From Sphagnum compactum (lineage: Eukaryota), in NCBI GenBank assembly GCA_965153455.1, contig OZ234493.1:5642001-5706000 (forward strand): a DNA stretch of 64,000 bases, written 5' to 3'. The first letter of the stretch is position 1. Every line of letters starts with the position of its first letter. Shown piece by piece: positions 41,501 through 46,800 of the stretch. The notes under the pieces were generated by a model. It saw nothing but the letters and a program-made list of their open reading frames with translations, was not told where the DNA came from and did not search any database. The position numbers were made by a program, and so were the translations under genes.

Positions 41501-42139
41501 CATTTTTAAACTGTCTTTGACAATCTTTAGTGCATCAGATGCGCCAAGAGGAGGCGTTCAAGTTTTGTTTCAGCACCAGAAACAACTGAGCTCTCCCCCC
41601 TTGAATCCGGCTTGCTTTGAGCACTTAAGTGTTCGCTCACTGGCCGTTCTACCCTAAAGCCCACCCAGGTTTTAAATAAAATCCAACAAGCTGGGTTCTT
41701 TTTTCTTCTCTTCAATTTTGTGATGTAACCCAAACTGGGTATCATCCCAAAGAGGATTTAGCCAAATCTGGCTACACAGGGTTTCTTCTTTTCTTTTCTT
41801 TTTTTCCCTCCCCTCTCAATTTTGTGGCATGAAAAATGTGGTGGGTGAAACCATTTAAAATCAGCAAAATTAGTCGAATTTACATTTAATTTCCCAGACT
41901 TTTTTGTTATAAAAACGGCAAATTTGACCCCCAAAAAAGTCACTGAGACCGTATGTGAACGTAAATAAATTTAAGAATATTTTAATATTCCGGCTAGCTG
42001 AAATACGGCGATTAAGTTTTTGTCTATTTATTCGAAATCCGGCGAGTTAGGGACCTTTTTTTCCACAAAAATCCCTTCGGATACGTCGAAATCATATTTT
42101 TCAGGTCGAAAAAATGCGAAAATTCAGAACGCCATTTTT

Positions 42140-42237
42140 CGACCGTTCGATCGAAATCTGGACGACTGAGGGATGCTTTCTGGTCGATCCGAGTGAACAC
42201 ACGCTATTGGCCTTCTCCTCTGTTTGCAGTATAAATA
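42140..42237 (+). promoter_or_regulatory. H2A promoter: histone-promoter-like CCGTTCGATC element, inverted CCAAT, TATA box
   Basis: GACCGTTCGATC 42141-42152, ATTGG about 42206, TATAAATA 42230-42237, about 200 bp upstream of the ATG. Confidence 0.55.
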
Positions 42238-42437
42238 GTGCATTGTTGTTCCTGCTGCTGCGCGCGTGCAGATCCTTTGAATTCGTATTTTCGCCGATTG
42301 CTACCCCGCTCGACTGTCGCTGAAATTTCTAGTCGCTCTTTCTCTGTTGCTTGCGCCCTTCCTATTGTCTTCGCTTAGATCTATTGTGACTTGTTTGTTT
42401 TGTGGATTTTTGTTTTACGTTTTTGTCGTCTGCGACC

Positions 42438-43362
42438 ATGTCGGGAAGAGGAAAGAGCTCCGGGAAGAAGGTTATGTCGCGTTCCACCAAGGCTGGGCTA
42501 CAGTTTCCCGTGGGAAGGATTGCAAGGTTCTTGAAGGCTGGGAAGTACTCTACCAGAGTCGGGGCGGGCGCTCCTGTTTATCTTGCTGCAGTGTTGGAGT
42601 ATCTTGCTGCTGAGGTATGTCTGGTTTACTCTTATTTAAATTTTAGTCGGTGCGCTGAATCCAATCTGCAAGAAATAGCCTCAGAGTCCTATGTGTAGCT
42701 TGCAGCACAATCAATCATTAAAAAAAACTCGCCAACTAACGAGAGAAGTGGAGTGTTACTGCGGTTGAAGAAATGTGCGCCTATCAGTCAGAAAGAAATA
42801 GGCTCAGAGTCCAACTCGCAGCATAATCGCTCGTAAGAACTTCTTATCAATAAATGAAGAGGAGAGTGTTAAGCGTTAACGCAGATGAAGGAACGGCGAA
42901 TCAGGTGTACTCTTATTTTAGTCGGTATGCAGAATCGAGTTCTTATTCGTCGGGGAAAATATGAGCTCAGAGTCCTGTTCGGAGCTTGCTGCGTAAAACT
43001 ACTCGTCAATTAAAAAAACAATGGAGAGCGTTGAGCGCTAACGCGGTTGAAGAAATGTACGCTAAACCGAATTATTGATTCGTCTCAGAAACATTCTTTT
43101 CGTTGTACTGATTTGTCTTTCTGTTTCAATCTGCGTTTCTCAGGTGCTGGAGTTGGCTGGGAATGCATCCCGAGATAACAAGAAGACAAGAATCGTGCCT
43201 CGTCACATCCAACTGGCAGTAAGAAACGATGAAGAACTGAGCAGGCTACTAGGACAGGTGACGATTGCCAACGGAGGAGTGCTTCCAAACATCCACTCAA
43301 TCTTGCTTCCAAAGAAATCTGGAGGAACTGGCAAACCTGGCAAGGCAGGTTCTCCAGAGTGA
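42438..43362 (+). CDS. H2A: Histone H2A, 2 exons, 131 aa
   Basis: Exons 42438-42614 and 43144-43362, intron at the conserved plant LAAE|VLEL site. [69 protein letters not shown]; tail [16 protein letters not shown]. Confidence 0.98.
42628..43062. repeat. Three diverged ~130-150 bp tandem units making up most of the H2A intron
   Basis: Each unit carries CTCAGAGTCC (about 42680, 42803, 42966) and a GC(G/A)GxTGAAG motif. Units 1 and 3 also share TACTCTTATTT..TAGTCGGT and GCGGTTGAAGAAATGT. Confidence 0.75.
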
Positions 43363-43404
43363 AAAATCTTGGAAGGATTGTTACCTTACCATTTCTCCTT
43401 CACT

Positions 43405-43430
43405 CAAATGGTGTTTTTAAACACCACCTA
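43405..43430 (+). other. Histone 3'-UTR stem-loop (histone3/SLBP-binding type)
   Basis: CAAAT GGTGTT TTTA AACACC ACCTA: 6-bp stem (43410-43415/43420-43425) opening with GG, U-A closing pair, 4-nt UUUA loop, A-rich 5' flank, ACC 3' flank; 47 nt after the H2A stop. Confidence 0.75.
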
Positions 43431-43842
43431 ACAAAAGTTTGATATCAGCTTTGGAACTTGTTTAATGTATTCATTCAATTTCATTTGCAGATAGATTACT
43501 TGAGCTCTATGAGCTTCTTCCAATTTGCTATGGCTCATGGTGTGCACACAGAAAGAGATGTTCTGATGCAGAGTTGGAGGTGGGAATGAAGCACATCCCT
43601 AGCAGGCTCTGCTCAGCAAGTGAGTGCAAAAATACTTTGATTTCAGTCTTATTAATGCACTTATGCAGAAAAAAATCCTGCAAGAATGTTCTCTCAAGAG
43701 ACATTGAAATTGGTTTGTGCAGATATATGCATATAGTACATGGGCACCTTGCAAACACTAGATTTAGAGCTTTGATTTTTCTCTCATTTTATTTAATTGC
43801 CTCATATGGTGGATAGAGCTTCCTTTGTTGCTCTCTCAACTC

Positions 43843-46800
43843 TCAGATGACTGGAGCCTCCTTCTGAGATCCTTGCAACTGCATCATACACTCCTGTAAA
43901 GAAAACACTGATTATATGATACACTGATTTGTCTCTGTTAAAACCTGAATAGCATCAACACTTGAGAGAAGTTTATGTAGAGAATGTATTTGTCAGAAAT
44001 GAAACACAATGTTCTGTGTTGTTGGGAGAAATGTTACACCTTGATTGAAGCCATTTTTGCCCGCAGACTTTGCTCAATTTGATCCCTGGCCATTAGGACT
44101 GGTACATCAATAACCATGCATTCTCCTAATGCTGTTTGAGGTGGCTCAAGATCAAACATGCCATTTGCCCTGGTTCCTCCTGAAGATCTTGGCAAACTCC
44201 CTGGCACATTCAAACACTCACGCATGTCTCCCTGTACTGCCAAGAAAATGATGATTAGAGCTTGTCAGATCATATGCATGGCAAGAGGCATTTAAGACAT
44301 AGGGAAACATCAAGAATTCATGCATCATTATACAGAGAAAAAATTCTGAATGAATCATTTGATCAACTTCATTGAAGGGGAGAGATTCCTCAGAATACAT
44401 GCCTGCATGGTTCTTAACATATTCCTCAAATCTGTGTTCTCTGTAATGAGCTCCTGCTTTTGGGCCTCATATGCATCAACCTGCAGGGACATAGATCTCC
44501 ATAAAACATGATATCTTGGGGAGCTGGAAAGCTGTTTCTCCATTTCCAGTTGATCTACTCTACTGCAAAAATACATGAAAATACTGATGAAATAGGCTTA
44601 CAATCATTTTACAGAAGTCCCCATCTGCTTTCTTGTTGAGCAATGTTCCCCTTTGCTTGCCTTCCTTCTGTTGAATAGCAACGAGATGAGGTTCTGGAAG
44701 TTCTTAGACTCAAATATTGGATTTCACCCAGGATGTGAAGGAAGATTTGCCCTTGACCAAAGAAATTATTCCATCTGAGACCAAATGGTAAGGGTTTGCA
44801 ACCATAATGGAGTTCTACTCTTTTTCTACACTTAAATAGTGCAGGTAATAATTATGAGAGGCAGGTGCATGCCTGTAGTGAGCTCAAGATGTCCATGCTA
44901 TTCTTCACCTCTTTCTTCCTCTCCAGCAACACCTGGTTAAGTCGCTCCTATAACATGGAACAAAATTCTACTGTCAGAAATGCATAATTGCCTTTGCTCT
45001 TTGATATTGATCAAAAGTGGAGGATGACTATATACAATCACTTTCCTTACATTTGTACATCAGATTTGTAAAGCAGGTTCATAAAGCATAAACTGACAAT
45101 GACAGAGTGGAACTCAGGACAATTGTTAGCAGGCTAAATGCAGTGTGACCTACAAAACATCAAGATGAAAGGAAAGAACAATGCACCACTAGAGTAAACT
45201 CCTGTACCTGTAACTTGACAAAGTCTTTTTCTTTCTTCTTCAACTCATGCATCTGCTGAATTCTTACTTGCTATACACAAACCAGCCCATCCCCAAAATA
45301 GATTAGAACATTCATCCAATAGTCTGACTTTATTCGAATAGCCATTAGCTTCAGATAAATTTTGGCAGCACATAACATCTTTGCACATGGTGATCAACAT
45401 GAGAGTGACCTGTGGAATCCATTCAGGTCTCAACATGCAACCTATACCTGAGTGCTGATCACCATGCGCTGGAACTCATCTTTCTCATGTTGGAGCCTTG
45501 CCAGCTGTGCCCTGTTAGCAGCTGCTGCCTTTTGCTCCTGGTACAAAGGACTGTTCCCTTGTTATTAAAGTCTGAAACTCATCTAGGGCCCTTCCGGAGA
45601 TAACAAAAATCCCAAGTCATCAAGTTGCATCAACATCTTCTGTCACAGTGCCTTTAATCTTGACCAGGTCTAGAGATTGTGAAAAAACCTTGGTTGTCAA
45701 TGCTTGCAATTCCCGCTCCTTGCTAGCAAGTTGGTCAGTGAGTCTCTCTACTTTAGCCTCAAGCCTTGACATGTCTGACATCAACCTGATCCATCCATAA
45801 GCAGTGAGGAGTCTGACCAGGAAAAAGACTGACATCTGCAGCTGATGCAGTTTCTAGACCTCAAGAACATGTGGGAGATGGGTAGAAACTCTGAAGATTT
45901 CAAATCAACCAAAGCTTCATCACAAGGATGCCAACAGAATCCTGCATCTTGCTCAGATTCTCATGATCTTACACCAAGGAACTGGTCAATTTCGCTCCTT
46001 GACTAAGCTTCTGTGCTTCTCAGAAAATGGAACCTACCTCTGTCTAGTGTCATTTGCTGTTTCACGGTATTCAATATCACGCTGCCGCTGCTGGATCATT
46101 GAATAAATGCAGTTACATGTGCGCACAATTGAAGCCTGCACATGGGACAAAGATGTAGGTTGATCTTCCCTGTAGCAAATTATATTGGGAGGATTTGCAA
46201 GCATTTCTTACAAAGCCCAATGGGAAAACACTGTTTTGTCATCAACTTAAAAAAAGGTTCTTCAGGAAATACATCAGTTTGATCAGTTGGGAGGAAAATT
46301 GCAAAGCACTCCTTACAGGCTCACTGGAGTAAAAATTGAGTGCTGATGGAAAGCCGAATGTGACCAATGACTGATTGAGGTATTTTATACAGTGATCCAG
46401 ATTGTGAATGTCAGCAAAAGTGTCATCTCTGCAATTTCAAACAGGACATTGCCACCCATCAAATTTTGTATGTGTGCTGCAAAACGAAAGAGGGAATTCT
46501 ATGTCACAGAGATGCTCCACACAAGCTTTTTGGGATCTGTTGGATATATTCTGCTAATACATGTCTGTAAAATCATCTAGACTCTCTCGCTGTCCTACAA
46601 AACATCAGCACAAGATGCCATAAGACTTGAGTTCTTGCTCGCTAGCCTGTGAAAGCTTTTGAGTAGGCAAATGGAGAATCTAACTTGAACCAAAATCCTC
46701 TCCCATGTATCTTCAACAAGAACACAAAGAAAATACATGAACAATTCTGCTACTGCTTGTACTGCTTGTAGGTATGAAGTGTTTAGGGTTTTCTTTGGAA

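Follow-up and report, generated by a model that had tools for sequence, protein, structure and literature searches.

Traditionally, histone mRNAs that end in a stem-loop were regarded as peculiar to animals and some algae. The question raised by this locus is whether a short hairpin, lying just downstream of the H2A gene of a moss, represents a histone mRNA 3' end signal of the same kind. The hairpin lies within the 64-kb stretch of DNA that we analysed, hereafter the window. An initial annotation, made from sequence, had suggested that a bryophyte may retain a stem-loop system for histone mRNA. For comparison, public metagenome contigs were searched with exon 2 of the window gene, and 80 of the 423 confirmed H2A loci were kept. 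Most of what follows concerns six copies: the window gene and five related moss-type metagenome H2A loci (L001-L005). Identity to the window is 91-97% for L001 and L002, which are collinear with it. The other three, L003-L005, have diverged further (~70-78% identity) and are syntenic, also sharing the downstream neighbour gene, as determined by BLAST.

Translation of the window places a two-exon H2A gene, with a product of 131 amino acids, at 42438-43362 on the plus strand. The gene, and the promoter block before it, are composed as follows.

42138-42252, plus strand: promoter block, kept in the diverged copies L003-L005 (BLAST) and with invariant stretches in the alignment.
42438-42614, plus strand: H2A exon 1, 59 codons including the ATG, identified from the translation, PF00125 positions 41-90 and RNA contigs.
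42615-43143, plus strand: H2A intron, 529 nt, GT..AG, phase 0, with the joint found in RNA reads and contigs.
43144-43362, plus strand: H2A exon 2, with the TGA stop at 43360-43362 and a Histone_H2A_C match of 67.6 bits.

The two halves of Pfam domain PF00125 are split over exons 1 and 2, and Histone_H2A_C falls in exon 2. H2A.X, H2A.Z and H2A.W each have recognised hallmarks, and the C-terminal tail of the protein, ...GKAGSPE, lacks an SQ-type end. Hence, by these hallmarks, the H2A is of canonical type. With the histone fold, the C-terminal domain and none of the H2A.X, H2A.Z or H2A.W features, the product would belong to the canonical (replication-type) plant class. Evidence that the exons are joined across 529 nt comes from one poly(A)+ read of library X22, and from contigs of RNA data sets X1, X2 and X3. 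Hence, the gene is expressed and spliced. Note that X1 and X2 have identical tables and are counted as one data set. The assignment of the gene to a moss rests on the labels of the sequencing runs, 'moss metagenome' and 'plant metagenome'. Two exons, GT..AG borders, Pfam H2A domains and spliced RNA all uphold the view, taken in the initial annotation, that an intron-containing H2A gene precedes the hairpin. The intron position is common to the window and L003-L005 (BLAST). Intron length is 529 nt in the window, roughly 460 nt in L003 and ~215 nt in L004 and L005. A degenerate internal duplication occupies 42640-43062 of the window intron; it comprises four match pairs of 22-33 nt, with 81-86% identity, of which three are spaced by ~275-286 nt and one by 123 nt. 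Tandem Repeats Finder detected nothing in the gene region (41800-43700).

The promoter block holds GTCGATCCGAGTGAA (42183-42197), ATTGG (42206-42210) and TATAAATA (42230-42237). In the alignment with L003-L005, the invariant stretches are ACCGT, AATCTGGACGA, GTCGATCCG.GTGAA and ATTGG, and a TATA box is found ~200 nt upstream of the H2A ATG. The middle stretch in L004 and L005 is GATCCGCG, which we take to be the reverse of the plant histone octamer, an element tied to S-phase expression. The block may thus contain counterparts of the plant histone octamer and CCAAT elements. Two similar stretches of ~30 nt, recognised by eye, are present upstream at 42031-42060 and 42150-42180. They share the pattern TCGAAATC.GG.CGA.T.AGGGA and are absent from the computed repeat families.

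Downstream of the stop codon, four features can be listed, the third and fourth of which overlap.

43363-43404, plus strand: 3' UTR spacer, poorly conserved, with 10-18 of 43 columns identical to L003-L005.
43405-43429, plus strand: putative histone 3' stem-loop block, matching RF00032 at 29.3 bits and conserved in six copies.
43430-43649, plus strand: read-through part of the transcript, abutting a convergent minus strand gene, from X1/X2/X3 contigs and X22 coverage.
43431-43452, plus strand: downstream block CAAAAGTTTGATATCAGCTT, partly conserved, with a BLAST match to L004/L005 that reaches 43451.

The window reads CAAAT-GGTGTT-TTTA-AACACC-ACCTA-ACAAAAG at 43405-43436. Within this, GGTGTT (43410-43415) pairs with AACACC (43420-43425) to give a hairpin, 43410-43425, with the loop TTTA (43416-43419). 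The 5' flank is CAAAT (43405-43409) and the 3' flank is ACCT. Exactly 47 nt separate the TGA from the first G of the stem. Both these letters and this distance agree with the initial annotation. The geometry is that of the Rfam histone stem-loop model, RF00032: a stem of 6 bp with two basal G-C pairs and a U-A top pair, a 4-nt loop, an A-rich 5' flank and ACC on the 3' side. Unlike the RF00032 consensus, one U separates the A run from the stem. This T43409 and A43426 are able to make a seventh pair, which is present in the minimum-energy fold.

The initial annotation had proposed running RF00032 on the 3' flank of the gene. The hairpin matched the model over its full length, with a score of 29.3 bits and an E-value of 1.1e-6 (261 nt against 4227 Rfam families). 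The gathering score for RF00032, 34 bits, is not reached. Hence, a scan of the whole 64-kb window at the gathering level returned no Rfam match, U7 included. The folding energy is unremarkable, at -8.0 kcal/mol (z -1.5), and was equalled by 19 of 200 shuffled sequences. Hairpins of the form GG..CC, with 6 pairs and a 4-nt loop, are scarce; both strands of the window contain only 6 besides the one behind H2A. A loose IUPAC pattern that ignored pairing did not discriminate, with 2 matches where 1.93 were expected. A scan for bacterial promoters and terminators found nothing, and that method is not suited to a plant. Taken on its own, the Rfam match is good but below threshold. The case for the hairpin therefore rests on comparison.

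CAAAT-GGTGTT-loop-AACACC-ACCT was found in all five of the closest H2A loci (L001-L005, among the 80 loci kept of 423), 31-48 nt past the stop. The initial annotation had counted absence of the hairpin from orthologous and other histone 3' UTRs among the findings that would speak against its reading; the hairpin is present in all five. In every pair among the six copies, 23-25 of the 25 nt in the block are identical. The three diverged copies, L003-L005, match the window at 23-24 of 25 positions in the block, and at 10-18 of 43 before it. Thus for L003 the identity is 24/25 in the block, 18/43 from stop to block, 14/28 in the next ~30 nt and 31/80 further on. The equivalent values for L004 are 23/25, 11/43, 17/30 (next 30 nt) and 29/88. 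We conclude that the hairpin block is a conserved island, fixed while the remaining 3' UTR drifts.

Only loop positions 2 and 3 vary within the 25-nt block across the six copies; the stem, and the CAAAT and ACCT flanks, are invariant. The window has the loop UUUA, L001-L003 have UUCA, and L004 and L005 have UCCA. Position 1 is kept in six of six copies, and position 3 is C in five of six. The RNA contigs of X1-X3 carry a T>C change at 43418, which is loop position 3. In the animal histone stem-loop, U is conserved at loop positions 1 and 3, and the Rfam consensus loop for RF00032 is UUUa. When applied to the diverged copies, RF00032 scored L003 at 21.8 bits and gave no match to L004 at E<=1. 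As scores drop with these loop changes, the Rfam model, with its UUUa loop, undervalues what selection keeps here. A 43-kb Rfam scan across 12 loci gave matches in two of them, L030 (27.4 bits) and L042 (23.8 bits), and missed L001-L005, probably because of speed filters. We therefore rescanned short stretches. Note that the stem is constant among the moss copies, and compensatory changes are therefore lacking inside this clade.

A wider survey of H2A genes gives a similar picture. Within 150 nt past the stop, a GG..CC hairpin with a 6-bp stem and a 4-nt loop is present at 33 of the 80 H2A loci kept of 423, many of which are near-duplicates (about 22 distinct versions). The background for the same rule is 41 hairpins in 501,888 positions across the 80 loci, or 0.012 per 150 nt. 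Such hairpins are consequently ~34 times commoner in the 150 nt past the stop than in the background. The GGTGTT/AACACC stem, with its ACCT flank, recurs behind five more distant metagenome H2A genes (L025, L030, L042, L045, and L061). This fits the likeness to a green-algal stem proposed in the initial annotation; GGTGTT/AACACC may be the volvocine green-algal variant. The histone 3' palindromes of volvocine green algae, reportedly described by Muller in 1990 and Fabry in 1995, resemble the window hairpin in being green-lineage histone hairpins. The exact 19-letter motif had 5 bacterial matches elsewhere, in 596 billion bases of the genome_contigs set, against ~4 expected by our own estimate. 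Among viral contigs there was one match, inside a giant-virus ORF, which is at chance level. Searches with short peptide motifs revealed no H2B, H3 or H4 gene in L001-L005 or in the window itself.

One algal contig, L027, encodes both H4 and H2A, and a separate GG..CC hairpin, flanked by ACCA, follows each gene. The two stems differ, being GGTTTC/GAAACC and GGTGAA/TTCACC, so that stem covariation is apparent between histone classes in one organism. A further observation concerns the letters either side of the stem, equivalent to 43409 and 43426 of the window. These can pair in 32 of the 33 H2A hairpins (26 T-A and 6 A-T, with 1 C-C), a count taken over many near-duplicate loci with a search rule that did not require the pair. 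All A-T cases come from hairpins of the GGAAAT/GGAAAA group, in which the flank is TCC. The H4 hairpin of L027 is without this flanking seventh pair. Since the flanking letters are pairable in 32 of 33 cases, a stem of 7 bp is suggested, and the green-lineage H2A hairpin may take this form.

We also looked for the hairpin in RNA. A spliced contig of 565 nt, from X1/X2, extends from exon 1, through the hairpin, to ~43529. This is at least 99 nt past the hairpin. A contig from X3 also passes the hairpin and continues into the neighbouring gene. The X22 library is poly(A)-selected and provided 6 reads only, from ~12% of the data. Its coverage of the H2A strand, from one poly(A)+ fragment, spans ~43446-43649, and coverage of the opposite strand begins at 43650. 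Hence, RNA continuing downstream of the hairpin, as suspected in the initial annotation, is seen both in contigs, to ~43529 and further, and in the poly(A)+ fragment. All of the RNA evidence passes the hairpin or lies beyond it, and comes from poly(A)-selected reads and contigs, in which poly(A)-less ends are not detectable. With a poly(A)-selected library, and contigs that hold no end information, the lack of ends at the hairpin is uninformative. We conclude that some molecules do pass the hairpin; these could be read-through mRNA, or pre-mRNA that is spliced but still uncleaved.

The read-through transcript meets a convergent, multi-exon gene on the minus strand (43650-45900). According to stranded X22 reads, this gene ends at ~43650, tail-to-tail with the H2A transcript. 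The same neighbour is kept beside H2A in L001-L005, and one of its reading frames is coiled-coil-like. In X3, which is from a close relative (95-99% alike), 231 other letters replace 17 nt at 43618-43636, an intergenic indel difference. L002 has a similar break at 43636-43637.

Immediately after the hairpin, the downstream block contains ATCA.CTT, which the alignment shows to be common to the six copies. Compared with L003-L005, only 14-17 of 28-30 columns are identical. Between L003 and L004, the identity of the block is at the level of unconserved 3' flank. From these comparisons, we infer no more than that 43431-43452 is a candidate second processing signal. It is also the sole hint at this locus of the purine-rich downstream element that pairs with U7 snRNA in SLBP/U7-dependent processing.

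How does this locus compare with known systems? The metazoan RF00032/SLBP/U7 system is alike in its GG..CC stem of 6 bp, U-A top pair and U-first 4-nt loop. Also shared are the A-rich 5' flank, the ACC on the 3' side, and a location within a few tens of nt of the stop. The window hairpin differs in its sub-gathering score, and in having a U before the stem that could pair with the A after it, giving 7 bp. The moss H2A genes differ further in their variable loop positions 2 and 3, their intron, and the read-through to a downstream end. A separate likeness is found in a different kingdom. In Physarum, individual histone genes are described that combine a stem-loop with a poly(A) signal, and some have introns (PMC8600027, NAR Genom Bioinform 2021). 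The combination of stem-loop and polyadenylation, with introns in some Physarum genes, is thus alike; the evidence presented there includes a comparison of poly(A)+ and total RNA.

Closer parallels come from land plants. Poly(A)-less histone mRNAs have been reported for the moss P. patens, together with RF00032 stem-loops and SLBP (PMC13130582, Genome Biol 2026). That report also covers a fern and a cycad, and describes SLBP homologues in those species. RF00032 motifs are given for 33 of 51 histone genes in the reported set, and some moss genes make both forms of mRNA. Our locus is alike, in that a land-plant histone gene carries an RF00032-like hairpin, and adds read-through. The 3' ends in that report are from nanopore data, whereas the H2A gene described here is known from contigs and poly(A)-selected reads. 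A survey across eukaryotes (bioRxiv 10.64898/2026.10.14.759114) states that the G-C pair and the loop uridine are retained in bryophytes, that mosses keep SLBP, with Sphagnum magellanicum named, and that land plants have LSM10/11 homologues. The preprint attributes earlier findings to Lopez and Samuelsson (2008). Its scope is that of a survey; individual loci, loop variation between paralogues, and read-through do not feature in its sections 5, 7 and 12. Hence, stem-loop histone 3' ends in mosses and bryophytes are already published, in these two 2026 reports and, as the preprint has it, to some extent in 2008. The H2A locus is therefore an added example, not a discovery. The premise that land plants do without the stem-loop system is out of date given the 2026 literature. 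The suggestion, in the initial annotation, of a bryophyte stem-loop system, already in print, gains support from the island conserved in six copies, spliced expression and read-through.

On the strength of the sequence comparisons, we conclude that the moss H2A gene family carries a genuine histone mRNA 3' stem-loop. It is probably a working one, bound by the moss SLBP and serving to direct, or to mark, the 3' ends of histone mRNA. We envisage that an SLBP orthologue would recognise the hairpin together with its single-stranded flanks. Binding would direct cleavage a few nt past the stem, at ~43429-43430, on part of the transcripts. The product would be a poly(A)-less H2A mRNA of S-phase type. 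The remaining transcripts would read through to a poly(A) site ~200 nt downstream (43620-43650) and retain the hairpin internally.

Two other explanations bear on this conclusion. The inverted repeat could be a chance hairpin or a palindrome that matters in DNA, such as a protein site or the leftover of a duplication, and have no role in RNA. The stem is indeed a perfect DNA palindrome, present on both strands, and neither its ordinary folding energy nor an Rfam score under gathering sets it apart. The palindrome, however, does not account for what is conserved: a 25-nt island in 3' UTRs that are otherwise unalignable, complete with flanks that are specific to one strand. The same stem and flank also occur behind distant H2A genes, and similar hairpins are enriched ~34-fold over background in the 150 nt past the stop. 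Because the conserved flanks are strand-specific above all, we disfavour this reading and consider it very improbable.

The alternative that deserves more weight accepts conservation, and binding by a protein, but dispenses with cleavage. All H2A mRNA would then be polyadenylated downstream, and the hairpin would act on stability, export or translation only. Each RNA molecule seen is compatible with this, since all pass the hairpin or lie beyond it (to ~43529 and further, or ~43446-43649 for the poly(A)+ fragment). The loops of the sister copies depart from the Rfam consensus, and the survey preprint itself speaks of SLBP and the stem-loop becoming decoupled in plants (bioRxiv 10.64898/2026.10.14.759114). 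Poly(A)-selected reads and contigs are, however, blind to poly(A)-less ends. Moreover, a subset of P. patens histone genes is reported to be >80% poly(A)-less, with others producing both forms (PMC13130582). Finally, the ACCT flank, where cleavage is expected, is as invariant as the stem. A hairpin that never directs cleavage thus strikes us as rather unlikely, and we retain the working stem-loop, with cleavage on part of the transcripts, as the preferred explanation.

A more elaborate version of the working stem-loop can be imagined, in which this moss group uses a modified signal on spliced pre-mRNAs. Here, the stem would have 7 bp (with U43409-A43426), the loop would be relaxed to U-Y-Y-A, and 43431-43452 would dock an undescribed plant U7-like snRNA. 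Every H2A gene would alternate between two ends, one at the hairpin that is poly(A)-less and one ~200 nt further on that is polyadenylated. We offer this complete scheme as speculation, and think it unlikely to hold in full.

Beyond the main text of the 2026 papers, what seems new is the set of letters fixed among diverged paralogues, the possible seventh pair, and the partly conserved downstream block. The letters in question are those of the stem and of both flanks, plus the first and fourth of the loop. The locus also adds that the hairpin is carried by intron-containing genes throughout the H2A family, and that read-through RNA exists. Fixed letters, intron-containing hosts and read-through RNA could together guide the mapping of 3' ends in mosses. 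More broadly, survival of the stem-loop in mosses bears on the timing of the switch, by land plants, to polyadenylated histone messages.
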